DNA of 53,815 bases from the NCBI GenBank assembly GCA_964412685.1, contig CAYPPS010000001.1:11835-65649 (forward strand), written 5' to 3'. The notes beneath the pieces were generated by a model that did no database searches, was not told where the DNA came from, and saw only the letters and a program-made list of their open reading frames with translations. Below are positions 3,397 through 26,854 of this stretch, piece after piece. Each line of letters opens with the position of its first letter. Position 1 is the stretch's first letter. Both the position numbers and the translations under genes were made by a program. Source of the DNA: an uncultured Gammaproteobacteria bacterium. Its GTDB lineage: Bacteria > Patescibacteriota > Microgenomatia > PFEM01 > CAYPPS01.

Positions 3397-3404
3397 ATTT
3401 AAAG

Positions 3405-3959
3405 ATGGGTAAAAAATATACTATTTGTGTTAGCGGAGGGGCGGAAGGCGGAAACGCCAAGAAAGCTAAAGTCATGTCTTACAAAGTCGGCCAATTGATT
3501 GCCCAAAAAGGTTGTGTTCTGATTACCGGAGCAACGACTGGCGTTCCTTTTGAAGCGGCTAGGGGAGCTAAAGAAGCTGGCGGGTCAAACATTGGATTCT
3601 CCCCAGCGGGAAGCGAAGAAGAGCATGTCAGGAAATATCGCCTGCCGGCGGATAAAGATATTTTTGACCACATTATCTATGCCGAAGCGGGCTATACGGG
3701 CAGAAATTTATTAATGGTTCGTAGTTCGGATGCGACAATTGTGATTGATGGTCGGATTGGAACTTTAAATGAGTTCACCGTCGCTTTTGAAGAAAATGAA
3801 ATTATTGGTGTTCTGCAAGGTTCTGGAGGAATTGCCGATGAGATTGAGCGCTTGCTTTCCGTCGCTGGTAAAGGACTGAGGAAAACTATTTTTGACGACG
3901 ATCCGGAAAAACTGGTGAAGAAAGTAATTGCTCGGATTAAAAAAGAAAAGAAGAGGTAA
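3405..3959 (+). CDS. LOG/TIGR00725-like Rossmann-fold protein
   Basis: 184 aa. Motifs ICVSGGAEGG, LITGATTGVPFEAARGAKEAGG and DGRIGTLNEF; the last resembles the PGGxGTxxE motif of the LOG family. Confidence 0.65.
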   Translation: MGKKYTICVSGGAEGGNAKKAKVMSYKVGQLIAQKGCVLITGATTGVPFEAARGAKEAGGSNIGFSPAGSEEEHVRKYRLPADKDIFDHIIYAEAGYTGRNLLMVRSSDATIVIDGRIGTLNEFTVAFEENEIIGVLQGSGGIADEIERLLSVAGKGLRKTIFDDDPEKLVKKVIARIKKEKKR

Positions 3960-3963
3960 AATA

Positions 3964-4980: not shown

Positions 4981-6010
4981 TGGTTTTGGCCGAATCGGCC
5001 GAATTGCTTTAAGACTGGCCTTGACGGACTATAGAGATCAGCTGGAAGTGGTGGCGATTAATACTTCCGGATCGATGCCGATTGAAGGTTGGGCTCATCT
5101 TTTAGAATATGATACTGTTCATGGTCGCTTCGACCTTGAGGTGAAAATAGAAAAAGGCCAAGAAGGAGAGATAGGCCGATTGAAAATAGACGAAAAGATT
5201 ATTCCCGTTTTAGTTCAACGGGATCCGAGTAAACTTCCCTGGAAGAAATATCAACCAGAAGTGGTGATTGAATCAACAGGGGTTTTTAATGATAAAAAGA
5301 GCGCCTCACTTCATCTGAAAGCGGGAACCAAAAAGGTAGTTGTTTCCGCCGCCACCGACGAAGTTCAGGACTATGTCATTGGCGTTAATGAAAAAAAATA
5401 TAAGGGAGCCTTGGTGGTTGGCAATGCTTCTTGTACCACTAATTGCGTTGCTCCAATTGTCAAAGTGATTAAAGAAAATTTTGGCTTGCAGAAAGCGATG
5501 ATGACAACCGTTCACGCTTATACTGCCTTGCAAAGCTTGACTGATGATTCCCACAAAGACTTGCGCCGGGCGAGGGCGGCGGCTCAAAATCTGATCCCCA
5601 CTTCCACCGGAGCGGCCAAAACTACCGTTGAAGTAATTCCTGAGATTAAAGGCCTTTTTGACGGCTTAGCCGTTAGAGCTCCCATTCTTTGCGGTTCGGT
5701 TTCTGACATTACCTTACTAACTCTAAAAAGAACCAGTGTCGAAGAAGTAAATCAGGCTTTTATTAAGGTGGCAAAAGGAGAACTGAAAGACATTCTGGAA
5801 ACGACAATTAAACCCTTAGTCTCCTCTGATATTTTGGGCTCAAGGGCTTCGGCAATCATTGATTTGAATCTGACTAAAGTGGTCGACGGTGACCTGGTTA
5901 AAGTGGTGGCTTGGTATGATAATGAATGGGGTTATTCTTGTCGATTGTTGGAACTGGCGCTTTTAGTGGCTGCTCCGTCTGCCGGCGGACAGGTTAAAAA
6001 GAAAAAATGA
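4961..6010 (+). CDS. gap: glyceraldehyde-3-phosphate dehydrogenase
   Basis: 349 aa. INGFGRIGR NAD-binding motif, catalytic ASCTTNC, and WYDNEWGYS. Confidence 0.95.
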   Translation: MTKIAINGFGRIGRIALRLALTDYRDQLEVVAINTSGSMPIEGWAHLLEYDTVHGRFDLEVKIEKGQEGEIGRLKIDEKIIPVLVQRDPSKLPWKKYQPEVVIESTGVFNDKKSASLHLKAGTKKVVVSAATDEVQDYVIGVNEKKYKGALVVGNASCTTNCVAPIVKVIKENFGLQKAMMTTVHAYTALQSLTDDSHKDLRRARAAAQNLIPTSTGAAKTTVEVIPEIKGLFDGLAVRAPILCGSVSDITLLTLKRTSVEEVNQAFIKVAKGELKDILETTIKPLVSSDILGSRASAIIDLNLTKVVDGDLVKVVAWYDNEWGYSCRLLELALLVAAPSAGGQVKKKK

Positions 6011-6678
6011 AGATAAAAAACTTGGCTTCTTATCTGGATTTAGCCAACCATCATCCTGATGCTCAACCGGAAGAAATCAAGAAGCTTTGTCGTCTGGTGG
6101 CCAAGTATCATTTTAATTCCGCCTTTGTTAATCCCTATTTTGTCACTTTGGCCAAGAGCCAATCTCAAGAGATTAAAGTGGGAACAGTGATCGCCTTTCC
6201 TTTGGGCCAGGAAAAGACGGACATTAAATTAATTAGCGCCCTGTCAGCCGTTAAAGACGGAGCTGATGAGCTGGACGTTTCTCTCAACATTGGCCTCTTT
6301 AAAGCCGGCGATTATCCTCATACTCTAGAAGAAATGAGGCGAATCGTTGAGGCGGTTAAATCAATCAAATCGCAAACAATAATTAAGTTTATTATTGAGA
6401 CTGGCCTTTTAACTGACGAAGAAATTAAAAGAGCCGCCAGCCTCGTTTTAAAAGCCAACGGTGATTTTGTCAAAACCTGTTCTGGCATGGGTCCAAGAGG
6501 AGCCAAGCTGAAAGATGTTCAATTAATCAGAGAAGCAATTGGGACATCAGTTCCCATCAAGGTCGCTGGCGGGATTCGCAACTTGAAAACCGCTAAGAGT
6601 TTTATTGAGGCTGGAGCGAGTCGAATTGGCACCTCTAAAGCAGTGGAAATCGTAGAAGAAGAAAAGAAAATTAAATGA
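6007..6678 (+). CDS. deoC: deoxyribose-phosphate aldolase
   Basis: 223 aa class I aldolase. Schiff-base Lys context DFVKTCSG and KVAGGIR. ATGA overlap with gap. Confidence 0.85.
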   Translation: MKIKNLASYLDLANHHPDAQPEEIKKLCRLVAKYHFNSAFVNPYFVTLAKSQSQEIKVGTVIAFPLGQEKTDIKLISALSAVKDGADELDVSLNIGLFKAGDYPHTLEEMRRIVEAVKSIKSQTIIKFIIETGLLTDEEIKRAASLVLKANGDFVKTCSGMGPRGAKLKDVQLIREAIGTSVPIKVAGGIRNLKTAKSFIEAGASRIGTSKAVEIVEEEKKIK

Positions 6679-6792
6679 AAAAAAGAATTGGAACCTATTT
6701 TATTTATTGTTTGATTTTCTCTTTTGGCTTTTAGTGATTTCAGTTATTAGGCTAGTTGTTGTAAAGTTGATTAAAGGAGCAGGAAAAGATAA

Positions 6793-7677
6793 ATGACCAA
6801 CAGTAAGGAAATATTGCTTCAGGCAAAAAAGCAGGGCATTGCGTTAGGGGCTTTTAATGCCGGTAATTTGGAGATTGTTAAAGCTGTCGTAGCCGCGGCT
6901 AAGGCAAAAAAAAGTCCTATTATCATCGAAGCTTCTCAGGGGGAAATTGACCATTTTGGAATGGAGAACTTCTTAAGTGTCGTCAAGAAGTTAAGTCAGG
7001 GATTGTCTTCTCCAATCCTAACCAATTTTGACCATGGGCCAGGATTGGAAGAATGCCAAGCAGCAATTGAGGCTGGTTTTGACTTGGTCCATTTTGACGG
7101 TTCCCAACTTCCTTTAGAAGAAAACTTGAAAATCACCAAAATTTTGCTTCAACAAGCAAAAGAAAAAGGAGTCTTGATTGAGGCGGAGATTAATCCAATA
7201 GCTAATCGTTCGCAAGTTTATTCTCAAGATCCAAAAACGGTTCAATCTCAACATGAATACACTGATCCTCAGATGGCCCACGACTTTGTCGCCGAAACCA
7301 AAGTTGATTTACTGGCCGTTTTTGTGGGCAATCTCCACGGTGTCTATCCTTCGCCGCCAAGATTGGATTTAGAAAGATTAAAGCTCATTTCTCAAGAAAC
7401 TGATTGTTTTTTGAGTCTTCATGGCGGCTCGGGTTTATCTCCTGATGACATTAAGATGGCCATTGCTGTTGGCAAAATTGTCAAGATCAACATCAACACC
7501 GAGTTAAGAGTTGCTTTCAAAGAAACTTTAAGCAACGTTCTTAAAGGTTCGGAAGAATTGGCGGTTTACAAGCTAATGCCCCCGGTTGAGGCGGCGATTC
7601 AGAATGCAGTTGAAGAAAAAATTGACCTTTTTAGACAGGGAGCTTTAAATCAAGAGGAAGCCAGCGATGAAATATGA
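6793..7677 (+). CDS. fba: class II fructose-bisphosphate aldolase family protein
   Basis: 294 aa with FDHG, HFDGS, LHGGSG and NINTELR motifs of the metal-dependent aldolases. Confidence 0.85.
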   Translation: MTNSKEILLQAKKQGIALGAFNAGNLEIVKAVVAAAKAKKSPIIIEASQGEIDHFGMENFLSVVKKLSQGLSSPILTNFDHGPGLEECQAAIEAGFDLVHFDGSQLPLEENLKITKILLQQAKEKGVLIEAEINPIANRSQVYSQDPKTVQSQHEYTDPQMAHDFVAETKVDLLAVFVGNLHGVYPSPPRLDLERLKLISQETDCFLSLHGGSGLSPDDIKMAIAVGKIVKININTELRVAFKETLSNVLKGSEELAVYKLMPPVEAAIQNAVEEKIDLFRQGALNQEEASDEI

Positions 7678-8632
7678 CGTTATCTCTTTCGGCTCGGCCA
7701 TTCTCGACGTCTTCGTTAACAGTTCCGAGCTAAAAGTTTTTACCGACAAAAATAATTCAACCGGAAAAAGTTTCTCTCTTCCAGTGGGAGCAAAGTTAAA
7801 AGCCGACGAGCTGGAGATTCATTCTGGCGGAGGAGGAACGAATGCCGCCGTTAGTTTTGCCCGAATGGGATTAAAAACAGGAGTGGTGGCTCGTTGTGGT
7901 TGGGATCTGGCCGGCAAATTAATTCGCCAGGAATTAAAAGAAGAAAAAGTCACCGACCAATTATTGGTTCAGTTCGAAGGGGAAAGAACCGATTGGTCAA
8001 TCATCTTGATTGACGGTCAAGGTAATTCAACTATTCTAGTCTGGCGAGGGGAAACCAGACTGGAAAAAAGCGTTATTAACTTGTCTTTACTAAATAGCTT
8101 TTGGTTTTACCTGGCTTCCTTGGAAGGCAATTTAGAGTTAGTTGAGTTTTTACTTGATCTGGCCAACAAGAATCACATCAAAGTGGCTTGGAATCCGGGT
8201 CGAAGAGAAATAGAACAAAAAGAGACTCTTTTGGCTCTAGCTCCCAAAGTTGAAACCTTGATTCTTAATCAGAAAGAATTATTGAGATTGACTAAACCTT
8301 CTTTGACTTCTGATCAAGCTTTTGAGAATCTAAGCAAAATTTTACCGAAAACTAATCTAATTATTACTAACGGAAAAGAGGGAGTAAAAGCCAAAGATGC
8401 TCAAGGAAAAATTTTTAATTTACCCGGTTTAACAGTTAATCAAAAAGACCAAACCGGAGCAGGGGATGGTTTTGCCAGTGGTTTTGTTGCCGGGTTAATT
8501 AAACAAGAATCATTTGAAAAAGCACTTCAAAGAGGGGCGGTTAATGGGGCTTCGGTGGTGACCAAAATTGGAGCCAAGTCCGGTCTAATTTTCGAAAAGG
8601 AACTGGATTATTGGCTTTCTAAATTAGACTGA
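7667..8632 (+). CDS. PfkB/ribokinase-family carbohydrate kinase
   Basis: 321 aa with GGGGTNAA and the C-terminal signature TGAGDGFASGF. It overlaps fba by 11 nt. Confidence 0.85.
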   Translation: MKYDVISFGSAILDVFVNSSELKVFTDKNNSTGKSFSLPVGAKLKADELEIHSGGGGTNAAVSFARMGLKTGVVARCGWDLAGKLIRQELKEEKVTDQLLVQFEGERTDWSIILIDGQGNSTILVWRGETRLEKSVINLSLLNSFWFYLASLEGNLELVEFLLDLANKNHIKVAWNPGRREIEQKETLLALAPKVETLILNQKELLRLTKPSLTSDQAFENLSKILPKTNLIITNGKEGVKAKDAQGKIFNLPGLTVNQKDQTGAGDGFASGFVAGLIKQESFEKALQRGAVNGASVVTKIGAKSGLIFEKELDYWLSKLD

Positions 8633-15795: not shown

Positions 15796-18700
15796 ATGGC
15801 TAAAAGAAAAGCTCCTCGTGGCTTTGCCAGAGGAAAATGGACAGAATCATCGCTAAAATTTTTGCATGAACGTTATCTAGCCAAAGATGGTCTAGGTCGT
15901 GAAGTGGAAACTCCGGAAGGAATGGTTTGGCGAGTTGCTTCTCAAATCGCCGGAATAGAAACTAACTTTGGCAAGTCGAGTAAAGAGATCAAGCAATTGG
16001 CGAAAAACTATTATGATTTAATGGTTTCTCGTTTTTTTATGCCCAATTCACCCACCTTGATAAATGCCGGCAAAGATGACGGTTTACAATATTCAGCTTG
16101 TTTTGTTTTGCCCGTCGAAGATTCGATTGAAGCCATTTTTGAAGCGATTAAAAATGCGGCCTTGATCCACAAGAGCGGTGGGGGTACCGGCTTTTCCTTT
16201 TCTCGATTGAGACCTAAAGGGAGTATCGTTCGTTCCACTTCCGGGGTTGCTTCCGGTCCGGTTTCTTTTATGAGAGTCTTTGATTCGGCCACTAATGAGA
16301 TCAAACAAGGGGGAACTCGGCGAGGAGCCAACATGGGTGTCCTCCGAATCGACCACCCGGACATTTTAGGATTCATTGAATCCAAAGCCAAGGGAGGCAT
16401 TACCAATTTTAATATCTCGGTGGCGATGACCGACGAATTTATCAAGGCGGTCAAAAAAGACGGTAGTTACTGGCTAATCGAGCCACACGGAAAAAAGAAG
16501 ATTAAGAAATTAAAAGCGAAACAGGTTTTTAAAAAGATCGTTGAACAAGCTTGGAAAACTGGCGATCCGGGAGTTCTTTTTATTGATCGGGTTAACAAGA
16601 GCCGGGCCAATCCGGTTCCTTCTCAAGGTCCGATTGAAGCGACCAATCCCTGTGTTGTCGGTTCAACTTTAATTGCTACCGAAAAAGGGCTTATTAAGAT
16701 AAAAGATTTAGTTGTTGACAAAATGAAAGTGAAAGTTGTCACTGACGATCGAGTTGTGGGTGAGTCGGGCTTATCGACGAGGAGTTTAACAAGATACATT
16801 GACAATGGAGTAAAAGAGATATGGCGATTGCAGACAAAATCAGGCTATGGGCTCACCGCCACGGCTGATCATAAAATTATGACCACTCAAGGCTGGATTC
16901 CTTTGGGTCAGCTTAAAGTAAGGGAAAGTAAGGTTTTAATTCAAGCAGGTGAGGGCAACTTTAACCAGAGTTTTGCTCTGCCGTTTGTTCCTGTGAACGA
17001 AATCAAAGGTCAAAACGGTAAGATATCACGTTTTAATTTTCCGACCAAATGGTCTGAGCAGTTAGGGCAAGTTTTGGGTTGGTTGGTTGGCGACGGCTGG
17101 CTGCGCCAGGGGGACAAAAATTGCCGAGTTGGTTTCAGTTTTGGTAAAGATGACAAGCCTATACTAGATCACTTGAAACCCATTATTAATAACTGGCACG
17201 GTCGAGAAATCCAAGAAATTGAAAGAGAAAATGGAGTCTGGCATCTTTCCTATCATCGTCAGGGCTTCGTCGATTTTTTTACCAAATTAGGTGTGAAGCC
17301 GGTTAAAGCAGGGGAAAAAGAAGTCCCCGAGGCACTTTTTGCTGCTCCGCGTGAGGTAGTGATTGGATTTTTACAAGGACTTTTTAGTGCCGATGGGACA
17401 GTGAATTTTTTAGAAGGTCGAAACGCATATGTCCGCCTAACTTCGAAATCGAGTAAGTTACTTAAACAAGTCCAATTATTACTTTTGAATTTAGGCATAC
17501 CGACTCAAATTTATAATCGCTCACGACCTGTTAGGAAAAGCCTGTTTCAATATGAAACAAAAGATGGTACCCAAAAAAACTATCAATCAGACGGGGTCCT
17601 TTTTGAACTGGGAATTTCTCGCCAGCCGGTGGTCGCTTTTCTAAATGAAATTGGTTTTTTGGTTGGTAAGCATGAACATAAAGTAAAGAAGCTTTTGGAT
17701 AAGAGGTATTACCGTAAAGATTACAGCGATGAGGTTATTTCAATTGAATCGGCAGGGAAAGAAAAAGTTTTTGATTTGACTGAACCAGCAACCTCTTCCT
17801 ATATTGCCAATGGCCTGGTGATCTCAAATTGCGGTGAACAACCACTTTATTCCAATGAAGCCTGTAATTTGGGCAGTTTGAATTTAGCCCGCTTTCTTAA
17901 TAAAAAAAAGGACGACCTAGATTGGCACTTACTTAAAGAAAAGGTTCATTTATCGGTTCGTTTTCTTGACGATGTGATTGAGGCCAATCCTTTCCCCTTG
18001 AAACAGATTGATCGGATGGTGAGACTTAACCGGCGAATTGGTTTGGGAGTGATGGGTTGGGCGGATTTACTTTTCGAATTGGAAATCCCTTATGCTTCCC
18101 CCAAAGCTTTAAGATTGGCGGAGAAGACAATCAAGTTTATTCAAAAAGAGGCTCACTTAGCCAGTCAAAACCTAGCTCAAGAAAGAGGCGCCTTTCCTAA
18201 TTTTAAAAAGAGTATTTACAAAGACGGGAAACCGCTTCGAAACGCCACCCTAACGACAATCGCTCCTTCCGGTTCAATTTCCGTTATTACTGGTTGTTCT
18301 TCGGGGATAGAGCCTATCTTTGCTCTTTGTTTTAAACATCGAACTGAGGAACGCGAGCTTACTTTTATTAATCCTTACTTTAAAGGAATTGCCAAAAAGC
18401 TTGGTTTAAATTCCGATGTTTGGGAGAAGATTGAGGCTCAAGGTAATCTGGAAGGAATCGGAGAGGTTCCCAAGAAGATAAGGAAAATTTTTGTCACGGC
18501 TCATGAAGTGGCCTGGCAAGATCACATTGCCACGCAAGCCGTTTTCCAAAAAGGAACCGACAACGCCGTTTCCAAAACCATTAATCTTCCCCACCAGGCA
18601 ACTCAAAAAGACGTTCATCAATCTTACCTTAAAGCCCATGAAACCGGTTGTATGGGAGTGACTGTTTTTCGTGACGGTTGCAAACAAGAACAAGTGCTTT

Positions 18701-19284
18701 ATTCCGGCTTGAAAGAAAAGGAGAAACCAGTCGTTGAAATAGACAAAAGTGACACTGCTCGGCTTAAAGTTAAATCTCGACCAAAAGTGGTCAGCGGAAA
18801 AACTTATCGGATTGTTACCCCGGTGGGAACGGCGTTTGTGACGGTAAATACTAATGGCAACAATGAACCTTTAGAAGTTTTTGTCAATGTGGGTAAAGCC
18901 GGTTCGGCAATTATGGCCGACGCTGAGGCGATTGGTCGTTTAATCTCTTTGAGCTTGAAAGTGGCTTCGCCTTATCCGACGAAAGAGGTTTTGTGGCAGG
19001 TAATTGATCAGTTAAACGGAATTAGTGGCGGAGACAGCGTTGGTTTTGGCAAGGATCGGATTTTGTCTTTGGCCGATGGAGTTGCCCACGTTTTGAGCGA
19101 GTACTATCAGGAAGAGGCTCAAAAATTGTTAAACCCAAAGGGAGAAGTCTCGCCAGTAGTCCAACAACCCAGTTTGCTTTCTCAAAGTAAAAGAAGAGAT
19201 CTTTGTCCGGATTGCGGTCGAGCCTCTTTAATCTTTCAAGAAGGCTGTGCCAAATGCCTTTATTGCGGCTACAATAAGTGTTAA
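15796..19284 (+). CDS. nrdJ: adenosylcobalamin-dependent (class II) ribonucleotide reductase, intein-containing precursor
   Basis: 1162-aa ORF. The exteins carry class II RNR motifs: the ...ATNP|CGEQPL finger loop once the insert is removed, and a C-terminal Cys-rich tail, CPDCG...CAKCLYCG. The extein total of ~769 aa fits a monomeric NrdJ. Confidence 0.9.
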   Translation: MAKRKAPRGFARGKWTESSLKFLHERYLAKDGLGREVETPEGMVWRVASQIAGIETNFGKSSKEIKQLAKNYYDLMVSRFFMPNSPTLINAGKDDGLQYSACFVLPVEDSIEAIFEAIKNAALIHKSGGGTGFSFSRLRPKGSIVRSTSGVASGPVSFMRVFDSATNEIKQGGTRRGANMGVLRIDHPDILGFIESKAKGGITNFNISVAMTDEFIKAVKKDGSYWLIEPHGKKKIKKLKAKQVFKKIVEQAWKTGDPGVLFIDRVNKSRANPVPSQGPIEATNPCVVGSTLIATEKGLIKIKDLVVDKMKVKVVTDDRVVGESGLSTRSLTRYIDNGVKEIWRLQTKSGYGLTATADHKIMTTQGWIPLGQLKVRESKVLIQAGEGNFNQSFALPFVPVNEIKGQNGKISRFNFPTKWSEQLGQVLGWLVGDGWLRQGDKNCRVGFSFGKDDKPILDHLKPIINNWHGREIQEIERENGVWHLSYHRQGFVDFFTKLGVKPVKAGEKEVPEALFAAPREVVIGFLQGLFSADGTVNFLEGRNAYVRLTSKSSKLLKQVQLLLLNLGIPTQIYNRSRPVRKSLFQYETKDGTQKNYQSDGVLFELGISRQPVVAFLNEIGFLVGKHEHKVKKLLDKRYYRKDYSDEVISIESAGKEKVFDLTEPATSSYIANGLVISNCGEQPLYSNEACNLGSLNLARFLNKKKDDLDWHLLKEKVHLSVRFLDDVIEANPFPLKQIDRMVRLNRRIGLGVMGWADLLFELEIPYASPKALRLAEKTIKFIQKEAHLASQNLAQERGAFPNFKKSIYKDGKPLRNATLTTIAPSGSISVITGCSSGIEPIFALCFKHRTEERELTFINPYFKGIAKKLGLNSDVWEKIEAQGNLEGIGEVPKKIRKIFVTAHEVAWQDHIATQAVFQKGTDNAVSKTINLPHQATQKDVHQSYLKAHETGCMGVTVFRDGCKQEQVLYSGLKEKEKPVVEIDKSDTARLKVKSRPKVVSGKTYRIVTPVGTAFVTVNTNGNNEPLEVFVNVGKAGSAIMADAEAIGRLISLSLKVASPYPTKEVLWQVIDQLNGISGGDSVGFGKDRILSLADGVAHVLSEYYQEEAQKLLNPKGEVSPVVQQPSLLSQSKRRDLCPDCGRASLIFQEGCAKCLYCGYNKC
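16651..17829 (+). mobile_element. intein (393 aa) with a LAGLIDADG homing-endonuclease domain
   Basis: Starts with Cys (CVVGSTLIA, block A). Block B is TATADHKIMT. Two LAGLIDADG motifs are present (LGWLVGDGWL and IGFLQGLFSADGTV). It ends ...GLVISN, followed by the +1 Cys of CGEQ. Removing it restores NPCGEQ. Confidence 0.88.
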
Positions 19285-19648: not shown

Positions 19649-21991
19649 ATGAATCAACTTTCTTTAACTAATGTTTTTTCCCAACTGGGCTATTGGCTTG
19701 TTCTGGGTTCACTTTTGTTGGTTTGCTTGGGCGGCTTAGCTGCTTTGGCTTACGGATTGGTAATTTGGTATCGCCATCGGAATCGGGAAAAACAATCATT
19801 AGAATACGTTTTGCTCCAAGTTTCTGTGCCTGCCAACAATGAAGTTAAAATTGATGCGGCGGAACAGATGTTTGCTTCTTTGAGTTCTCTAAAAAAAGGT
19901 GGCTTTTTAAAATTTTTGAACCTCCAACCTCATTTTACTTTGGAAATTGTTGCCAAGAATGAGGATATTCGTTTTTATGTTTCGGTTCACAAAAAGATCA
20001 GAGACATGATGGAAAAACAAATTAACGCCGCTTATCCCAGTGCCGAAGTGATTGAGGTGCCCGAATATAGTATTTTTAGCCCCAATGGTCGAGTTGCCTT
20101 CACGGAATTGGAGATGAAGGATTCAAGTTTCCGCCCCTTGAATAGTTATCGAGATTTACCAACTGACCCGCTTTCGGGGATAACCTCGGCGATGGCCAAA
20201 CTGGCTGAAGGCGAATCAGCCGTTGTTCAAATCGTTGTTTCGGCCGCGGACAGTAAATGGCGTTCATTGGGAAAAGGTTTTATTTCTAAAACCAAAAAGG
20301 ATGAATCCGATCCGGAAAAAGCCAGTTTTAAAGTAGACGCGAAAACCTTGGAAGCGATTGAAAATAAGACCGGCAAACCGGGTTTTGAAGTGGCGGTTCG
20401 TTTGGTTGTTTGTTCTGACTCGATTGAATCCGCGAAAGCTCAGTTGAGTAATTTGAAGAGTGCTTTTACTCAATTTAATTCTAGTTATAATCGTTTAGGG
20501 TCGAGAAAAATTTGGATAAAGAGTGCTTTTATGATTGATTTCATTTATCGTTATCAATCAATTGTTCGCTTGGGAACTAAAGAGACGGTTCTTAGTAGTG
20601 AGGAATTGGCAACGATTTTTCACTTTCCTAACAAGTTTGTGGAAACACCTCATATTCATTGGATTTATTCTCGACGAGCACCAGCGCCACCGGAAATACC
20701 CAAATCCGGTCTTCTTTTGGGCCGGAGTGTTTTTAGAGGGACTAGCCGACCAGTTTTTTTGAGTGAAAAAGACCGTCGTCGCCACTCTTATATCATTGGT
20801 CGAACCGGAACTGGCAAATCTGAGTTGATGCGAGAAATGATTCTCCAAGACATCAACGCCGGTCGGGGAGTTTGTTTGATCGACCCTCATGATTTGGCGG
20901 AAGATATTCTCCACTTTATTCCTCCGGAAAGGGCCAAAGATGTAATTTATTTTGATCCTTCCGATACCGAGAGGCCAATGGGACTTAACCTCTTGGAAGC
21001 GGAAACGGAAGACCAGAAACACTTTGTCGCCACATCAATCATTAACTTGATGTATAAACTTTTCGATCCTTATAAAACGGGAATTGTCGGGCCTCGATTT
21101 GAGCACGCGGTTAGAAACTCGATGTTGACGGTGATGGAACAAAAAGGAGCGACTTTTGTTGAGCTTTACCGAGCGCTCCAAGACCCAGCTTATGTTCAGG
21201 AATTGTTGCCGTTGGTAAAAGATCCGTTGGTGAAAAGATATTGGACGGATCAAATCGCCCGAACGAACGAATTCCATAAATCGGAAACTTTAGATTACAT
21301 TGTTTCCAAGTTCGGCCGATTTGTCGGCAACAAAATGATACGTAACATTATTGGCCAGTCAAAATCAGCCTTTGATTTTAGAGAAGTGATGGATGAAGGC
21401 AAGATTTTAATTATTAATTTAGCCAAAGGCAAGATTGGAGAGGAAAACTCTTCCTTTATAGGTTTAGTTTTGGTACCTAGAATTTTACTTGCCGCAATGA
21501 GTCGAACGGATATTCCCGAGGAACAACGGCGAGATTTTTATCTTTATGTTGATGAGTTCCAAAATTTTGCCACTCCCGATTTCGCTCAAATTCTCTCTGA
21601 GGCGAGAAAATATAAGCTTAATTTGACGGTTGCCAACCAATTTGTTGGTCAGATGGAAGAAGAAGTCAAAGATGCCATCTTTGGTAACGTGGGAACGAAA
21701 ATTTCTTTCCAAATTGGAGTCAATGACGCTAATTACCTACAACAAGAGTATCAACCCGCCTTCTCGGAGGAAGACTTAATTAATATCGAGCGCTTTCACG
21801 CTTACGTTAAGACCATTGTCAGGGGAGAGCCGGTGCCAGCGTTCAGTATTGACACCACCAAAGATATGAATGAGCTCGCAAAAATGAAGGATCCAAAAAT
21901 TGCCAAGATGATCAAAGATCTTTCTCGATTTAGGTACGGTCGTGATCGAGAAGTGGTTGAAGCGGAAATAACCGAACGAGCCAAGCTTTAA
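19649..21991 (+). CDS. membrane-anchored P-loop ATPase, VirD4/TraG/TraD-like (type IV coupling-protein-like)
   Basis: 780 aa. N-terminal TM helix, Walker A GRTGTGKS and Walker B-like FYLYVDEFQNF. Confidence 0.65.
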   Translation: MNQLSLTNVFSQLGYWLVLGSLLLVCLGGLAALAYGLVIWYRHRNREKQSLEYVLLQVSVPANNEVKIDAAEQMFASLSSLKKGGFLKFLNLQPHFTLEIVAKNEDIRFYVSVHKKIRDMMEKQINAAYPSAEVIEVPEYSIFSPNGRVAFTELEMKDSSFRPLNSYRDLPTDPLSGITSAMAKLAEGESAVVQIVVSAADSKWRSLGKGFISKTKKDESDPEKASFKVDAKTLEAIENKTGKPGFEVAVRLVVCSDSIESAKAQLSNLKSAFTQFNSSYNRLGSRKIWIKSAFMIDFIYRYQSIVRLGTKETVLSSEELATIFHFPNKFVETPHIHWIYSRRAPAPPEIPKSGLLLGRSVFRGTSRPVFLSEKDRRRHSYIIGRTGTGKSELMREMILQDINAGRGVCLIDPHDLAEDILHFIPPERAKDVIYFDPSDTERPMGLNLLEAETEDQKHFVATSIINLMYKLFDPYKTGIVGPRFEHAVRNSMLTVMEQKGATFVELYRALQDPAYVQELLPLVKDPLVKRYWTDQIARTNEFHKSETLDYIVSKFGRFVGNKMIRNIIGQSKSAFDFREVMDEGKILIINLAKGKIGEENSSFIGLVLVPRILLAAMSRTDIPEEQRRDFYLYVDEFQNFATPDFAQILSEARKYKLNLTVANQFVGQMEEEVKDAIFGNVGTKISFQIGVNDANYLQQEYQPAFSEEDLINIERFHAYVKTIVRGEPVPAFSIDTTKDMNELAKMKDPKIAKMIKDLSRFRYGRDREVVEAEITERAKL

Positions 21992-22021: not shown

Positions 22022-22094
22022 GGGCCGGTAGCTCAGCGGTTAGAGCACTGCTCTTATAAGGCAGGGGTCGCTGGTTCAAATCCAGCCCGGCCTA
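22022..22094 (+). tRNA. tRNA-Ile, anticodon TAT (UAU)
   Basis: Hand-folded cloverleaf. Acceptor GGGCCGG/CCGGCCT, D arm GCTC-AGCGGTTA-GAGC, anticodon arm CTGCT-CTTATAA-GGCAG, T arm GCTGG-TTCAAAT-CCAGC. CCA is not encoded. Confidence 0.85.
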
Positions 22095-22144
22095 CAAACA
22101 GAACGAACGCTTCAATGTTTGTGGGATAAGTCCAAAAAAGCTTT

Positions 22145-23008
22145 TTAGAGTTCTTCTAATTTTTCGCTTGAGGAAACTTTGTCTTTAATAAATTCCAAAT
22201 ATTTTTCGGTGGTGGAGAGTCTTTTGTGGCCAACAACTTGTTGGAGTCGTACCGGGGAAGTCCCAGCCATTAGTTGATGAGCAATAAAAGTATGTCTTAG
22301 ATCGTTGACGGTCACGTTTTTGACTCCTGCTAGCCTAAAGTAACGATCAATGGCGGAACGAATGTTTCTGACATTCATGGCTCGGTGATTTTTAGTGACA
22401 AAAATAGTTTGTGCTTTTGATTTTGGCCGATGATCTAAATAGCGCTCCAGCGCCTTTTTGGCTGAAGAATTTAAGGGAACTTTTCTTAACGGTTGAGCCT
22501 CACAAGCTTGAATCGTGATATCTTTTTCGTCAATGTTTTCAAACTCTAATCTGGCCAATTCACCGATACGCATTCCGGTTTGAAGTAGAATTTCAATCAC
22601 GGCTGCCATTCGAGGATCATTCCTAACCGTGTCTCTCAAAGCGCGGTATTCCATCTTGGTTAGAATTCGAGGAGGATTGGTGGTAAATTTTGGATGGGCA
22701 ACGCTAATAGCAGGATCGTTCTCAATCGTCTTGATGCTGACTAAATAACGGAAGAAAGCTTTGATGGAATTAAGCTTTCTGGAAACTGACTTGGGAGTAT
22801 ATTTTTTTTCTTCCAACAAAAATTTTTTGAAATCATTGATTAAGTCCGAGGTAACCCGATCAACCAAATCGACATTTTTTTCCGCCAAAAAACTGGCAAA
22901 CTGAGAGAGATCGTTGCCATATGCTAGGATAGTGTAAGAAGAACGCTTATCTTTTTTTAAATTCTCGACAAACTTTTCTCGACCGGTGCTTAAATTTAAA
23001 GGTGACAT
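22145..23008 (-). CDS. tyrosine-type site-specific recombinase/integrase (XerC/D family)
   Basis: 287 aa with an N-terminal SAM-like domain. Catalytic contexts GMRIGELARL (Arg), LRHTFIAHQL (HxxR) and GHKRLSTTEKY (Tyr). Confidence 0.88.
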   Translation of the reverse strand: MSPLNLSTGREKFVENLKKDKRSSYTILAYGNDLSQFASFLAEKNVDLVDRVTSDLINDFKKFLLEEKKYTPKSVSRKLNSIKAFFRYLVSIKTIENDPAISVAHPKFTTNPPRILTKMEYRALRDTVRNDPRMAAVIEILLQTGMRIGELARLEFENIDEKDITIQACEAQPLRKVPLNSSAKKALERYLDHRPKSKAQTIFVTKNHRAMNVRNIRSAIDRYFRLAGVKNVTVNDLRHTFIAHQLMAGTSPVRLQQVVGHKRLSTTEKYLEFIKDKVSSSEKLEEL

Positions 23009-23472: not shown

Positions 23473-23542
23473 TGCGGGGTAGTGTACGGCTGCACGCGAG
23501 GCTCATAATCTTGCAGACTAGGTTCAACTCCTAGCCCCGCAA
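23473..23542 (+). tRNA. tRNA with CAT anticodon (elongator Met or Ile2-type), short D loop
   Basis: Acceptor TGCGGGG/CCCCGCA, U8, D arm GTGT-ACGGCT-GCAC, anticodon arm CGAGG-CTCATAA-TCTTG, T arm CTAGG-TTCAACT-CCTAG. The boundaries are less certain than for the other tRNAs. Confidence 0.6.
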
Positions 23543-23553
23543 CTAAATTTTAA

Positions 23554-23627
23554 GGCAGGGTAGCTCAGTCGGTTAGAGCGTTGGATTCATAAACCAAAGG
23601 TCGTGGGTTCAACTCCCACCCCTGCTA
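23554..23627 (+). tRNA. tRNA with CAT anticodon (Met or Ile2-type)
   Basis: Acceptor GGCAGGG/CCCTGCT, D arm GCTC-AGTCGGTTA-GAGC, anticodon loop TTCATAA, T arm GTGGG-TTCAACT-CCCAC. Confidence 0.8.
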
Positions 23628-23642
23628 CTTTTGTAAAGTTTT

Positions 23643-23713
23643 AGGGGCGTGGTTAAATGGTATAACAGCAGTCTCCAAAACTGCTATTGGGGGTTCGATT
23701 CCCTCCGCCCCTG
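23643..23713 (+). tRNA. tRNA-Trp, anticodon CCA
   Basis: Acceptor AGGGGCG/CGCCCCT, anticodon arm CAGCA-GTCTCCAAAAC-TGCTA with loop CTCCAAA, T loop GGTTCGATTCC. Confidence 0.85.
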
Positions 23714-23726
23714 CAAATTAGCCTCA
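23708..23726 (+). repeat. repeat copy R0: tRNA-Trp 3' end plus flank (CCCCTGCAAATTAGCCTCA)
   Basis: This is the reference copy of a motif that recurs in direct orientation at 24350, 24809 and 25687. Confidence 0.8.
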
Positions 23727-23751
23727 GATGATATACTTCTTTTATAGTTAG

Positions 23752-24318
23752 ATGGAAAATAGCGAATTTGAAATATCTGTTAACCTTAAGGGTTTTCCTT
23801 TAAGATTTAAAACAACTCATGACCTTTTCTCTTACGGGGAAATAGATGGGGGAACAAAACTTCTCATAGATAATTTAAAAATGTCTGATGGCTTTACTTG
23901 TCTTGATTTGGGTTGTGGGTATGGTGCTATTGGAATCACAATGGCTAAGCTGAATCCAAAAAGCACGGTCTATTTGGTAGACAAAGATTTGGTCGCAATT
24001 GAGTATGCAAGAAAAAACTGTGAACTAAACGGTCTCTCGAATTGCAGGGTTATTCTCAGTAATGGATTTAGCCATATTAAAGACGTTAAATTTGACGTTG
24101 TTGTTTCCAATTTGCCGACTCACGTTTCAAAAGAAACAAGAACACAGTTTTTCAGAGACGCTCAGAAACAACTCAATCAAGATGGAAAAATATATGTTGT
24201 TACCGTAAACAAAGTAAGACCATATATTCAGAAGGTTTTCCAAGAGGTTTTTGGCAACTACTCCAAGGTTGCGTACAGTAAAACCCACACTGTCTCTTCA
24301 ACACAAAAAAACGTCTAG
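23752..24318 (+). CDS. class I SAM-dependent methyltransferase (RsmC/MTS-domain-like)
   Basis: 188 aa with motif I LDLGCGYGAIG and motif IV-like VVSNLPTH. Confidence 0.75.
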   Translation: MENSEFEISVNLKGFPLRFKTTHDLFSYGEIDGGTKLLIDNLKMSDGFTCLDLGCGYGAIGITMAKLNPKSTVYLVDKDLVAIEYARKNCELNGLSNCRVILSNGFSHIKDVKFDVVVSNLPTHVSKETRTQFFRDAQKQLNQDGKIYVVTVNKVRPYIQKVFQEVFGNYSKVAYSKTHTVSSTQKNV

Positions 24319-24349
24319 TGAGCAAGGGCCTTAGGGCTTTTCCGGTAGA

Positions 24350-24390
24350 AAGTTCTGACATCTTTCACTAGTCCCTGCATTTTAGCCTCA
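24350..24390 (+). repeat. repeat copy R1 (AAGTTCTGACATCTTTCACTAGTCCCTGCATTTTAGCCTCA)
   Basis: Direct repeat. Its 3' half matches the tRNA-Trp end and flank, and the whole length matches R2. Confidence 0.8.
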
Positions 24391-24407
24391 AACAATTATA
24401 TCTGACT

Positions 24408-24452
24408 GTCAAAAACTGAAGAAAATAGCAATTTATACCAGTTACTATTTTC
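24408..24452 (-). terminator. candidate intrinsic terminator of the 98-aa ORF
   Basis: The minus strand reads GAAAATAG, a 16-nt loop, CTATTTTC, then TTCAGTTTTT. The stem is AU-rich. The 5' arm begins in the stop codon. Confidence 0.4.
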
Positions 24453-24747
24453 AGTCTCTACCTGATTTTTTATCCATTTCTGGCCCAATTATTTGATATG
24501 CACCACAAGAATCACCTTTGTAATACTGACAGCGGCGGCCTTTACTTTCATATATTATCCTCAACCCACATTTACTGTGGGGCATTCTTACTGGACATAT
24601 AATTGCCTTCTTGAATGTTGGCGTTAATTCTTCTTCAGAAGGAATTATTTGTGCCTCTATTATTGGTCCACCTTCAATTGGTCGGCAATGTAATAATTTA
24701 CCGTTTAATAATAAATCTGGTAATCTTTCCGTGTTCATGAAAAGCAT
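24451..24747 (-). CDS. hypothetical Cys-rich protein (98 aa)
   Basis: ORF with Cys pairs (CPVRMPHSKC ... CQYYKGDSC), suggesting a metal-binding knuckle. No family recognised. Confidence 0.5.
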   Translation of the reverse strand: MLFMNTERLPDLLLNGKLLHCRPIEGGPIIEAQIIPSEEELTPTFKKAIICPVRMPHSKCGLRIIYESKGRRCQYYKGDSCGAYQIIGPEMDKKSGRD

Positions 24748-24808
24748 TATATCTCTTGTGAAGTATTTACAAAAGCATGCTGGTAATCTCGGTAATGTTC
24801 CTGATAAT

Positions 24809-24849
24809 AAGTTCCAACAATGTTCACTAGTCCCTGCAATTTAGCTTTA
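24809..24849 (+). repeat. repeat copy R2 (AAGTTCCAACAATGTTCACTAGTCCCTGCAATTTAGCTTTA)
   Basis: Direct repeat, about 33/41 identical to R1 and about 27/30 identical to R3 over the core. Confidence 0.8.
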
Positions 24850-25027
24850 AAAATGAGTCAAAGCTGATTGATAGTTAAACAAGAAGGCTTGTCGTTTTTT
24901 GAAATTACGAATCTCGTATCTGTTTAAGAACCTTTTTCTTCTACGCAAATAATGAGGCTAAAAGAGAACTATCTCCTGTTCCGTTCAGAAATCCAGTTTC
25001 CCTGTCATGCGCAAAGTTCGAACTAGT

Positions 25028-25582
25028 TCAAGCTAGGGCAACTAGTATCTTCTTTTGCCAATCTCGGTAGGGGTACCTATCTTCACTATTTTTCTTTGCT
25101 AATTGGTCATTTATTTCTATCATTTTCTTAAATCCCTCCAGCGTCGGAGTCCAAATGGGCTGACCTCGCAAGTTACCTAATGGATTCTCTGGGGCAAGCG
25201 AGGAAATATTTTCAATTATATTTAGTTTCCGAAGCAGCTTCTCGGCTTGTTCTATAGTTCCCAACTCTAATCTAAAATCAGGCGAAAGAGACGGATTTTT
25301 AAAAACAACTTTGCCCACTGCGCCTACTTTCCGTGGCGTGTGTTGATACCCATGCTTTTTGATTATCCGAATAAACTTATCTTTTGACTCTTCTTTTATA
25401 AACAAATCAAAATCGCCATGGGCTCTGGTTAATGTTCCATAAAGAGCATCAAGTCCATAACCACCAGTAACCCAGGCTCTAATTCCAAGCCGATGACATT
25501 CTGCAAGAATCACCAATAAAGAATCTAGTTGCCTTAATTGTTCGTCAGAAGGAAGGTAGCTAAAGGCCTTAGATTTTCTCAT
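25028..25582 (-). CDS. nucleotidyltransferase-fold protein (ANT(2'')/Lnu-like)
   Basis: 184 aa. The pol-beta NTase signature is VTGGYGLDALYG...HGDFDLFI (GG...D-x-D). Confidence 0.6.
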   Translation of the reverse strand: MRKSKAFSYLPSDEQLRQLDSLLVILAECHRLGIRAWVTGGYGLDALYGTLTRAHGDFDLFIKEESKDKFIRIIKKHGYQHTPRKVGAVGKVVFKNPSLSPDFRLELGTIEQAEKLLRKLNIIENISSLAPENPLGNLRGQPIWTPTLEGFKKMIEINDQLAKKNSEDRYPYRDWQKKILVALA

Positions 25583-25589
25583 TAACCTA

Positions 25590-25598
25590 ATTCTACCA
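25590..25598 (-). promoter_or_regulatory. extended -10 element (TGgTAGAAT) 7 nt upstream of the NTase ATG
   Basis: The minus strand reads tTGgTAGAATtaggttaATG, with no SD. Confidence 0.45.
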
Positions 25599-25686
25599 AA
25601 GTACCTCTTTTAATAAAATTATCTGGAAAAAGCAGGCCGAAAAGAATAATTCAGAGTTACCAAACCGTCAGAGCTTTCCCGAAACC

Positions 25687-25720
25687 AGGTTCCAACAAAG
25701 TTTACTAGCCCCTGCAAAGA
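25687..25720 (+). repeat. repeat copy R3 (AGGTTCCAACAAAGTTTACTAGCCCCTGCAAAGA)
   Basis: The last direct copy. Similarity ends right after CCCCTGCAA. Confidence 0.75.
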
Positions 25721-25819
25721 CAAATAAAAAGAAGCTCTCAACAAAACTTACCAGCTCTCGCACATATACATATGTAGGAGTTTGGGTTTGCGAGGAAGGA
25801 AATATTAAGTGTGAAGGAG

Positions 25820-25856
25820 ATTGCACACCCGGTGTGCAATGTGTTTTTGCTATAAT
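25820..25856 (+). promoter_or_regulatory. trpS promoter region: 9-bp inverted repeat plus extended -10
   Basis: ATTGCACAC-CCG-GTGTGCAAT (25820-25840), followed by GTGTTTT and TGcTATAAT (25848-25856). The ATG is 11 nt downstream. Confidence 0.5.
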
Positions 25857-25867
25857 CTCAATTAAGG

Positions 25868-26854
25868 ATGGGTAACAAAAAAAGAGTTTTTTCTGGCAGT
25901 CGGCCCACCGGCAGACTTCACCTCGGTAATTACCTAGGTGGAATTAAAGGCTACATTGCTCTTCAGGAGAGAGGGGATTTGGATTGTATTTACGGAGTCG
26001 TGGATCTCCATGCGATTACCACTCCCTACAATCCCAAAGAATTGGCTAAAAATACTTATGAAGTGGTGTTAGATTATCTTGGTGCCGGTCTAGATCCCAA
26101 AAAATGTCACTTAATGATCCAATCTCAAATTCCCGAACACGTTGAACTGGCTTACTTGCTCGGGACGATTTATCCGGTTTCTCGAATTGAACAACTGCCG
26201 ACTTACAAAGATAAGAAAAAAGAGAATCCCAATTATATTAATGTTGGCCTTTTTTATTACCCGATTTTGATGGCGGCTGATATTTTGATTTATCAAGCTA
26301 ATTTGGTTCCGGTTGGTCGAGATCAATTGCCCCATATCGAACTGGCTCGAGAAGTAGCGCGTAAGTTTAACCTTACTTTTAAAAAGGTTTTTGTTGAACC
26401 CAAAGTTTTTCTTTCTGAAGGTGAGTCGGTTCCCAGTTTGACGGGAACAGGCAAAATGAGCAAGACAATCAAAGACAGTTTCATCGAATTAACCGATGAT
26501 TTGAAAACAATTGAAGCCAAGTTGGCCAAGGCACCGACTGATTCAGGAAAAGGAAGCCAGATTCCTTCTCGGAGTGGGGTGGCTAATTTACTTAAATTAG
26601 TGGCGCTTTTTGAGGGTGAATCAAAAAAGAAAGAATACGAAAAAGATTATTTATCTTCGGGAATTAAATATGCCCAATTGAAGAAAGATTTGGCCTTGAG
26701 TATTTTTGAGGAACTAAAACCAATCCAGAAAAGAAGAGCCGACTTTGAAAAACATCCTCAGCAGGTTGAGAAAATTTTGGAAGACGGGCGAAAATATTGC
26801 TCTGAAATTGCCCAAAAAACCTTGGCAGAAGCAAAACAAGCCATGGGTTTTTAG
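25868..26854 (+). CDS. trpS: tryptophan--tRNA ligase
   Basis: 328 aa. HIGH-type motif GRLHLGNYLG and KMSKS motif GKMSKT. Confidence 0.93.
   Translation: MGNKKRVFSGSRPTGRLHLGNYLGGIKGYIALQERGDLDCIYGVVDLHAITTPYNPKELAKNTYEVVLDYLGAGLDPKKCHLMIQSQIPEHVELAYLLGTIYPVSRIEQLPTYKDKKKENPNYINVGLFYYPILMAADILIYQANLVPVGRDQLPHIELAREVARKFNLTFKKVFVEPKVFLSEGESVPSLTGTGKMSKTIKDSFIELTDDLKTIEAKLAKAPTDSGKGSQIPSRSGVANLLKLVALFEGESKKKEYEKDYLSSGIKYAQLKKDLALSIFEELKPIQKRRADFEKHPQQVEKILEDGRKYCSEIAQKTLAEAKQAMGF

Follow-up and report, generated by a model that had tools for sequence, protein, structure and literature searches.

A tRNA-Trp-anchored array of one-gene cassettes in a Patescibacteria genome as a probable integron-analogous platform

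Results

This work concerns a 53.8-kb stretch of contig CAYPPS010000001.1 (hereafter the window) from a genome of the Patescibacteria, also known as the candidate phyla radiation (CPR), and within it the 2 kb between the tRNA-Trp gene and trpS, which repeats divide into three one-gene modules. The original prediction, made from the letters of the window, had described three direct repeats at tRNA-Trp bounding such modules and had proposed serial site-specific insertion at a tRNA-Trp attachment (att) site, giving a cassette-like array. The repeat search, the shuffled controls and the open reading frame (ORF) and Pfam annotation bore out the layout, and every check proposed with the prediction that was run supported the insertion reading. 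The repeats are numbered R0 (at the tRNA) to R3, the modules are called cassettes, and L-numbers designate comparison contigs and loci. The features of the region are as follows.

23643-23714, plus strand: tRNA-Trp(CCA), called by ARAGORN, with an Rfam tRNA call at 23643-23713 (66.8 bits)
23709-23715, plus strand: R0 core CCCTGCA (acceptor-stem CCCT, discriminator G, CA), the putative crossover region common to R1-R3
23716-24372, plus strand: cassette A, 657 bp, with right arm AATTAGCCTCA, extended -10 element TGATATACT, a methyltransferase gene and, 3', the R1 left arm
23752-24318, plus strand: MTS/RsmC-like methyltransferase of cassette A (Pfam/NCBIfam)
24339-24392, plus strand: repeat R1, with cassette left arm, core at 24373-24379 and right arm TTTTAGCCTCA (nhmmer E = 3e-10)
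24380-24831, plus strand: cassette B, 452 bp, holding a 98-aa Cys-rich ORF with its own TATAAT
24451-24747, minus strand: 98-aa Cys-rich ORF of cassette B (ORF list)
24798-24851, plus strand: repeat R2, with left arm, core at 24832-24838 and right arm ATTTAGCTTTA (nhmmer E = 4e-12)
24839-25709, plus strand: cassette C, 871 bp, with a nucleotidyltransferase gene that has its own -10 element TGGTAGAAT; present in both haplotypes described below
25028-25582, minus strand: Lnu/ANT(2'')-like nucleotidyltransferase of cassette C (Pfam/NCBIfam)
25676-25717, plus strand: repeat R3, with cassette left arm, core at 25710-25716 and then the ancestral flank AAGACAAATAAAA (nhmmer E = 7e-11)
25717-25867, plus strand: ancestral tRNA-Trp/trpS spacer, with a terminator-like hairpin (25820-25840) and the trpS promoter TTTTTGCTATAAT
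25868-26854, plus strand: trpS, tryptophanyl-tRNA synthetase (Pfam tRNA-synt_1b), a conserved chromosomal neighbour and the distal boundary of the array

The repeat search recovered a direct-repeat family of three 42-nt copies (24339-24380, 24798-24839 and 25676-25717) with 74-81% identity, and an 18-nt family that ties the tRNA 3' end (23709-23726) to R1 (24373-24390) and R2 (24832-24849). The 17-mer GTTCACTAGTCCCTGCA, with up to three mismatches, occurs three times in the 53.8 kb, each time in R1-R3, against 0.09 occurrences expected, and none of 100 shuffled sequences reached three. The region had been judged AT-rich by eye, and at 37.3% GC it is indeed the lowest 2-kb stretch of the window (mean 41.5%), a deviant composition in keeping with foreign DNA. 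Elements at -10 had been proposed for the two minus-strand genes and are readable for all three cassette genes: TGATATACT at 23729-23737, a minus-strand TATAAT at about 24754-24759 and a minus-strand TGGTAGAAT at about 25592-25600. The Cys-rich protein had no Pfam or NCBIfam match, and its structure prediction (pLDDT 37 with 6 homologues) was too low in confidence to use. R3 lies 151 bp from the trpS start, in agreement with the predicted distance of about 150 bp between tRNA-Trp and trpS once the array is taken away.

Arm composition of the four sites

Alignment of the four sites showed that each combines a left side, the core and a right side in a different way. R0 consists of the tRNA left side, the core and AATTAGCCTCA; R1 and R2 consist of the conserved left arm, the core and (T/A)TTTAGC(C/T)T(C/T)A; and R3 has the conserved left arm and the core followed by AAGACAAATAAAA, which continues into the trpS promoter region. 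From the sequence, R0 to R3 would thus read as an attL/hybrid/hybrid/attR pattern, as expected of successive insertions of one site type at a single chromosomal site, with R3 as the attR-type end of the array and strand exchange expected inside the 7-8 identical bases. By analogy, the tRNA-Trp 3' end would be the anchor of the array, the equivalent of an attB or attI site. The repeat had been taken for the tRNA-Trp 3' end plus its flank; identity with the tRNA proper is limited to the 7-nt core CCCTGCA at 23709-23715, and the flank TTAGCCTCA common to R0, R1 and R2 is cassette sequence, not tRNA. The sequence that R1-R3 have in common 5' of the core, put at about 20 nt in the original prediction, is a left arm of about 35 nt. 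The 5' end of cassette A, TTAGCCTCAGATGATATACTTC, also opens unrelated cassettes in L153, L049, L146, L125 and L053.

The repeat unit

The consensus of 55 in-register units, drawn from the arrays described in the next section, is aaA..AGTTCCTGACAAAGTTYACTAGCCCCTGCAa. Information content is high over the ~27-nt left arm and the core and drops immediately past the core, in agreement with a crossover there. In about half of the units A(A/T)TTAGCCTCA comes next, and in cassettes of sense orientation TGnTATAAT or TATACT and an ATG come after it. Two subtypes can be told apart, GTTCCTGACA...ACTAGC and GTTCCAACA...ACTAGT.

Several tests for structure in the unit were negative. Folding of six units as single-stranded DNA (ssDNA), on both strands, gave z-scores of 0.04 to 2.0, none more stable than shuffled sequences; the longest perfect inverted repeat in the reconstructed sites was 5 nt, with none around the core; no Rfam family matched the unit; and the two AGTTnnCT sub-repeats of the left arm are direct, not inverted. 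Since there is no fold, no inverted repeat above 5 nt and no Rfam match, the units are neither attC-like hairpins nor symmetric core sites of the dif/lox type. We also considered a tRNA-like or structured-RNA repeat, in line with the degenerate T-arm/acceptor that had been suggested, and rejected it, as ARAGORN and Rfam found nothing and neither strand folds better than shuffles. A dif-like site was dropped as well: the left-arm sub-repeats loosely resemble Xer arms, but they are direct and the inner CATAA/TTATG motif is missing.

A second recurrent motif and split units were also seen. The motif AAATGCCGAAGATTGGGATAT follows the core of several antisense cassettes (L153 at 6433-6410 and 5185-5165; L143, L125, L049 and L130). 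In L049 and L130 it is also found shortly before a left arm or right behind tRNA-His. It could represent a terminator, an empty cassette or an alternative right arm. In split units, at 12719-12792 of L222 and on the minus strand of L099 at about 1678, 25-27 nt are inserted between the left arm (...AAAGTTCA or ...TTTACTAGC) and ACTAGCCCCTGCA; imprecise events may have left such scars, or the sites may be nested.

Arrays in other Patescibacteria

A metagenome contig scan with TTYACTAGYCCCTGCA returned at least 120 loci, mostly chance matches, and the extended left arm was present in 13 of the first 80. An nhmmer profile was built from the loci with the extended left arm, and the array counts given here refer to the matches listed. 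Units with E < 1e-6 were found at 23 or more loci, and at least 17 loci carried two or more units, clustered on the same strand. Among these matches, the ~34-nt left arm plus core AGTTCCTGACAAAGTTYACTAGCCCCTGCA delimits 41 cassettes in about 20 unrelated Patescibacteria contigs, the largest array being that of L153, with ten boundaries and nine cassettes in 5 kb. Exact-protein look-ups placed the array-bearing contigs in the 'Patescibacteria group', Microgenomates/Woesebacteria and Pacebacteria, and arrays are present in the published metagenome-assembled genomes (MAGs) GCA_000992125.1, GCA_018823885.1 and GCA_018817485.1. The repeat therefore defines a widespread family of cassette arrays, beyond the single locus to which the original prediction was confined.

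Most arrays have tRNA-Trp as their anchor. At no fewer than ten distinct loci (the window, L054/L224, L056, L066, L068, L105, L146, L159, L220 and L126/L222) a co-oriented tRNA-Trp lies upstream of the units, the array of L049 is downstream of tRNA-His, and those of L153 and L143 open with an orphan 24-26-nt fragment of the tRNA-Trp 3' end (GTTCGATTCCNTCCGCCCCTGCA) that lacks a 5' half. The fragment is on the minus strand in both, at 7895-7869 in L153, 40 nt after tRNA-Leu(TAG), and at reverse-complement position 230 in L143. In L222 the island downstream of tRNA-Trp exceeds 7 kb and its boundaries are only partly recognisable. The repeat had also been considered as a possible genome-wide motif, and its distribution speaks otherwise: in the window all three copies lie within the array, in L153 all 8-10 copies do so, in one orientation, and no copy occurs in the remaining 51 kb of the window or, at any locus, outside the array.

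L143 further holds, between the orphan fragment and its first repeat unit, a two-gene module on the minus strand that codes for an OLD-family ATPase/TOPRIM nuclease (2403-4361; AAA_15, AAA_21 and OLD-like_TOPRIM) and a 259-aa protein of unknown function (1506-2285). It has the look of a defence module that occupies the place of a cassette.

The ancestral junction in relatives

Relatives identified through TrpS (58-80% identity) belong to Shapirobacteria/Patescibacteria MAGs. In seven of the 13 relatives (L029, L030, L031, L032, L033, L039 and L040) only 5-100 bp separate tRNA-Trp from the downstream trpS, which answers the question of synteny raised by the original prediction and represents the ancestral empty site. 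The TTAGCCTCA flank is absent at tRNA-Trp in the relatives whose 3' flank was read (L029, L032 and L039/L040). The closest relative, L028, has a different insert of 3.7 kb (4273-7988) at this junction, with six ORFs (HTH_36, DUF5659 and four without assignment) and no clear repeat units, save possibly a degenerate one about 100 bp before trpS, and L036 has a 0.44-kb insert with one gene. Direct repeats were sought in both inserts and none was convincing. Because L028 and L036 carry other inserts there, the tRNA-Trp/trpS junction is an insertion hotspot of the lineage. Directly upstream of the tRNA-Trp region, free-standing LAGLIDADG/HTH-type ORFs were noticed in three lineages (L056 9-383, L054 6773-7384 and L028 3133-3807), their similarity being judged by eye.

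Two haplotypes in the population

Exact-protein look-ups retrieved TrpS on 11 contigs and DivIC on 22 (ENA, JGI, NCBI and Logan assemblies with 99.7-100% identity to the window). The window, L001, L003, L006 and L011 represent a long haplotype. A short one, found in L004, L008 and L012 (three different samples, 99.8-99.9% identity to the window), lacks exactly 1123 bp, namely cassettes A and B. Its junction, ...TTCCCTCCGC-CCCTGCA-ATTTAGCTTTAAAAATGAG, in which the sequence before the core ends in ...CTCCGC, joins the left side of R0 to the right side of R2 within the core. Module number thus varies exactly at the repeats, as had been anticipated, and does so in three independent assemblies. Assembly ends fall at R0 or R2 in several assemblies, and the Logan unitig L027 extends from 22 nt ahead of the R0 core to 22 nt beyond that of R2, which is what an assembly bubble with both haplotypes in one sample would produce. 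All four gametes occur between the indel and single-nucleotide polymorphisms at 25041 and 25285 (209 bp and 453 bp away), which indicates either recurrent gain and loss or recombination. In two independent assemblies, megahit k141 and Logan, contigs (L002 and L010) start at precisely the same window position, 24907, which is 69 nt beyond the R2 core and directly behind a run of six T; either another variant junction or a homopolymer effect may be the cause.

It could be argued that no dedicated recombinase is involved and that the ~34-nt repeats and the tRNA act as portable homology for RecA-dependent or microhomology-based swaps after DNA uptake, the short haplotype being a simple deletion. 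The 'minimal mobile elements' of Neisseria are a parallel for such homology-driven cassette swapping. The four-gamete pattern points to recombination in the population, the arrays have no linked recombinase, their repeats lack the symmetry seen in classical recombinase sites, and genes of the DNA-uptake type occur in CPR, such as that for DprA (DNA_processg_A) in L224, as does a TraG/VirD4-like ATPase beside the locus. However, the R0-R2 event that was observed shares only 8 identical bases, and R1, R2 and R3, with their longer identity, would be preferred substrates for homologous exchange. Conservation also stops sharply at the 3' edge of the core, and the use of the same 7 nt of tRNA-Trp as anchor at ten or more loci of different lineages is hard to obtain without site-specific chemistry. 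We therefore regard homology-driven swapping as unlikely.

Cassette contents and movement between arrays

The 41 cassettes measure 146-1281 bp, with a median of 592 bp. One ORF of at least 50 aa is present in 33 of them, two in seven (for example a Phd/PIN pair) and none in the remaining one, and the ORFs are oriented in both directions (26 sense and 21 antisense). They fill the cassettes, and several stop codons lie within the repeat. Pfam analysis of 46 cassette proteins showed content of an accessory kind, with NUDIX (five), HD (two) and glyoxalase (two) domains and single cases of MazG, NTPase_I-T, NDK, GNAT, PIN, GIY-YIG, AAA_18 kinase and alginate lyase, besides the methyltransferase and the nucleotidyltransferase of the window; domains of integrases, resolvases or replication proteins were not among them.

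Some cassettes recur in different arrays. A kinase cassette is common to L056, where it is the fourth after tRNA-Trp, and L049, where it is the first after tRNA-His; the 77% nucleotide homology extends over 676 nt from the upstream unit to the next, which has a degenerate left arm, and the sequence outside differs on both sides. A DUF5680 cassette is common to L153 and L156. In L220, a homologue of the window's Cys-rich protein (61% identity) is the second, antisense cassette of a tRNA-Trp-anchored array with different flanking genes. L211, L213, L214 and L221, which carry homologues of the window's cassette genes, were also inspected for the context of these genes and set aside: they have no repeat units, though some of the homologues adjoin other tRNAs.

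These results bear on the possibility that the repeat is a cis-regulatory or structural motif unrelated to mobility (a terminator, a site of RNA processing or protein binding, or an uptake sequence). An extended -10 box usually follows the right arm, which gives part of the unit a function in expression, and one array is invariant across five assemblies. Nevertheless, the unit does not fold (z-scores >= 0) and belongs to no Rfam family; it is found neither in the remaining 51 kb of the window nor, at any locus, outside the array, it flanks genes of both orientations, and it marks the exact ends of both the presence/absence polymorphism and the blocks of homology between arrays. The regulatory explanation is therefore largely refuted and we consider it very improbable.

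Recombinase candidates and possible source elements

The only recombinase gene found in the window (phmmer revealed no other) lies 0.7 kb upstream of the tRNA cluster.

22145-23008, minus strand: Xer-like tyrosine recombinase, 287 aa (Pfam Phage_integrase and SAM_1)

Its best NCBIfam models are XerD, XerC and XerA, all below cutoff, and against two integron-integrase models it scored 68 bits (cutoff 265) and 28 bits (cutoff 435). Relatives L028-L038, with and without inserts, have the gene in synteny at 54-83% identity. The original prediction had pointed to this recombinase as a link to the array, but because the same position is kept in relatives that have no insert, proximity is no evidence of one. 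As an equivalent of intI the gene was rejected on the same grounds, being Xer-like, syntenic without inserts and absent near other arrays.

Array loci searched with Xer and serine-recombinase queries yielded no recombinase apart from the genes of L159, where those of a resolvase and a large serine recombinase precede tRNA-Trp. The 15-21-kb Pfam-annotated contexts of three arrays contained none except a large serine recombinase at tRNA-His, 7.8 kb from the L153 array, which belongs to a TraG/Replic_Relax element. The large serine recombinases of L159 and L153 were set aside as a weak lead, their association being inconsistent and no att relationship having been found. Since the recombinase is not encoded in the cassettes or beside most arrays, it would have to act in trans. 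The identical 7-bp core would suit the overlap region of a tyrosine recombinase, but it would be conserved as well if the tRNA end has to be regenerated; judged from sequence, the genome's own Xer-like enzyme would be the obvious candidate for the trans-acting enzyme.

A source outside the arrays was also sought. The specific left-arm pattern had no match in IMG/VR, and none of 49 matches to the short pattern carried the extended unit. By blastn the unit found nothing in 50,697 GenBank phage records and nothing meaningful in 72,556 PLSDB plasmids, collections that hold few CPR episomes. A phage or plasmid source of the site was rejected on these results. In an unrelated Patescibacteria genome, L216 3478-6093 is an 871-aa gene homologous to the window's TraG/VirD4-like gene (described below), accompanied by a Replic_Relax protein and a large serine recombinase that abuts tRNA-His; this arrangement looks like an integrated mobilizable element.

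The array could alternatively be a stack of remnants of tRNA-integrating elements, such as prophages, integrative mobilizable elements or tycheposon-like islands, each decayed to one cargo gene in the manner of cis-mobilizable elements (CIMEs) formed by accretion. Integration at tRNA 3' ends is classical, and each new arrival displaces older elements outward (tycheposon preprint). The orphan tRNA-Trp 3' fragments of 24-26 nt that start the L153 and L143 arrays agree with this origin, as do the larger inserts at the same hotspot (the 3.7 kb with HTH_36 and DUF5659 in L028, the OLD-family nuclease module in L143) and the L222 island of more than 7 kb with its partly recognisable boundaries. On the other hand, none of the 41 cassettes contains an integrase gene or a fragment of one, and the cassettes are uniformly small, with ORFs that fill the space between sites and some stop codons inside the repeat. 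The left arm is conserved across lineages, and random decay would not keep every boundary; nor was an autonomous element with this site found in IMG/VR, the GenBank phages or the PLSDB plasmids. An origin from decayed elements thus seems improbable.

Neighbouring features of the window

The terminator-like hairpin at 25820-25840 has a 9-bp stem (ATTGCACACCCGGTGTGCAAT followed by a T-run) and lies directly upstream of the trpS -10 box; Rfam detected no T-box. tRNA-Ile(TAT), at 22022-22095, neighbours two tRNA-Met(CAT) genes (23473-23543 and 23554-23628) and is syntenic in the relatives. A tRNA-Ile with anticodon TAT reads AUA without lysidine. Just upstream of the tRNA-Ile/Xer block, the plus strand at 19649-21991 codes for a 780-aa TraG/VirD4-like ATPase (DUF8128, DUF87 and TrwB_AAD_bind) that is syntenic in L028. 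The large subunit of ribonucleotide reductase, at about 15868-19284 (L001 1-3417), contains an intein with a LAGLIDADG endonuclease domain (Pfam Intein_splicing and LAGLIDADG_3).

Discussion

Our results suggest that the tRNA-Trp array is probably an integron-analogous cassette platform, assembled at the 3' end of tRNA-Trp through conservative site-specific recombination and served by a recombinase in trans. The data show the arm composition of the sites, the gain or loss of modules at the cores, the empty site in relatives, the family of arrays and the homology between arrays that stops at cassette borders; circular intermediates, the order of events and the enzyme are inferred. Under this model, a cassette would be a complete expression unit of one gene, in either orientation, and an extended -10 promoter belonging to it, ending 3' in the conserved ~27-nt left arm and the 7-nt core CCCTGCA and starting 5' with the short and weaker right arm A(A/T)TTAGCCTCA. 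As a free circle it would carry left arm, core and right arm as an attC-like site, and this site would recombine with the identical core that ends tRNA-Trp, so that the tRNA 3' end is regenerated and the newest cassette comes to lie next to the tRNA. Recognition would be mainly by the left half-site and the core, that is, by the T-arm/acceptor of the tRNA for the anchor and by the 27-nt arm for cassettes. Because recognition would rest mainly on these parts, the anchor would still be competent after each insertion, like attI.

Several observations weigh against this platform model. Its sites have no dyad above 5 nt and no hairpin and are in this unlike the core sites of classical tyrosine recombinases. 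A single event is polymorphic in the population, and in principle an 8-bp microhomology deletion could produce it; metagenome contigs are consensus sequences, and chimeric assembly could partly explain the four-gamete result. Neither a circular cassette junction nor an empty-site junction of R0 with R3 was observed, and the L153 array is identical in five assemblies, so arrays can be static. The Xer-like gene of the window is syntenic in relatives without arrays, and no recombinase was found within 10 kb on either side of the arrays L215-L219, L222-L225, L066 and L068, save the serine recombinase by the L153 array. Finally, no unit can be recognised around several homologues of the window's cassette genes, so the cassette genes are not confined to arrays.

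Among known systems, integrons are the closest in organization. Like them, the arrays consist of mostly single-ORF cassettes that each end in a conserved recombination site with the putative crossover at its 3' edge; the anchor is fixed, and the newest cassette would be the proximal one. The cargo is also of a similar kind (NUDIX, GNAT, glyoxalase/bleomycin-resistance, MazG, toxin-antitoxin pairs, nucleotidyltransferases and methyltransferases), and cassette presence varies at the population level. The differences are, however, substantial. Integron attC sites, imperfect inverted repeats with an R''-L''...L'-R' layout and GTTRRRY, form hairpins as ssDNA, whereas the site described here is linear, non-palindromic and ~45 nt long, without a hairpin or R''/L''/L'/R' boxes. 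The anchor is the tRNA-Trp 3' end, in contrast to attI, which adjoins intI; there is no adjacent IntI, the neighbouring enzyme being Xer-like, without the IntI insertion and not array-specific. Integron cassettes are mostly promoterless, co-oriented and expressed from Pc, unlike the cassettes of these arrays, which have their own promoters and both orientations, and the hosts in this case are Patescibacteria.

The dif (pdif/Xer) modules of Acinetobacter and the integrative mobile elements exploiting Xer (IMEX) are likewise small modules of one or few genes that lack a recombinase and are bounded by short sites; a housekeeping tyrosine recombinase is thought to act on them in trans, and the modules shuffle between replicons. 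A pdif site is nevertheless a 28-bp XerC-spacer-XerD sequence with dyad symmetry and alternating orientation, and the repeats of the window are direct, with no dyad and no dif-like arms. They also lie at a chromosomal tRNA gene rather than on plasmids, and involvement of Xer is only a guess here. CIMEs formed by accretion, as in the Streptococcus ICESt1/3 family, are att-flanked, devoid of integration genes and arranged in tandem at a conserved chromosomal site, with the recombinase coming from elsewhere. They are, however, kilobase-scale decay products of recognisable integrative and conjugative elements with which they share att sites and integrase, whereas no parent element was found for the present units, which measure 0.15-1.3 kb and have a uniform architecture across about 20 contigs of several lineages.

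Tycheposons and other tRNA islands share with these arrays integration at the tRNA 3' end, direct repeats, the outward displacement of older insertions, and streamlined host genomes with few other mobile elements. Tycheposons have their own tyrosine or serine recombinase, replication modules, cargo of up to 10 kb or more and partial-tRNA repeats of ~40 nt (tycheposon preprint). In contrast, each unit of the present arrays has one gene and no integrase or replication gene. The repeats of the window share only the 7-8-nt core with the tRNA, but the arrays of L153 and L143 start with tRNA-Trp 3' fragments of 24-26 nt. Repetitive extragenic palindromic sequences (REPs), miniature inverted-repeat transposable elements (MITEs) and uptake sequences are scattered genome-wide and often palindromic, unlike the present unit, which is array-confined, same-strand and non-palindromic. 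A full-text literature search that included the repeat sequence, and that did not cover all journals, found no description of such arrays.

In a wider sense, it is possible that Microgenomates-group Patescibacteria own a gene-capture platform, defined by a tRNA-Trp anchor, a linear hairpin-less site of ~45 nt, promoter-bearing cassettes and a dedicated or co-opted recombinase encoded elsewhere. We hold this proposal tentatively, at a little under an even chance. If a dedicated recombinase is found, the arrays may be a distinct system; once found, the enzyme could serve as a compact integration tool with a defined ~45-bp site. The unit profile is already a simple search key for mining arrays in metagenomes.

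CPR bacteria have tiny genomes with few recognised mobile elements, and the way in which they acquire accessory genes is poorly understood. The cargo of the arrays includes functions of nucleotide house-cleaning and salvage (NUDIX, MazG, HD, NTPase, NDK and kinases), as well as toxin-antitoxin pairs and proteins of a drug-modifying look (the Lnu/ANT-type nucleotidyltransferase, the rRNA-type methyltransferase, the glyoxalase/bleomycin-resistance fold and GNAT), a spectrum that points to the selective pressures of an epibiont. If the proposal is true, a dedicated tRNA-Trp cassette system would explain strain-level variation in gene content, and a cassette platform that works without folded single-stranded attC sites would broaden the known solutions for gene capture. 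It would be a second, independently evolved form of cassette-based genome plasticity and a main route of gene flux in these tiny genomes.

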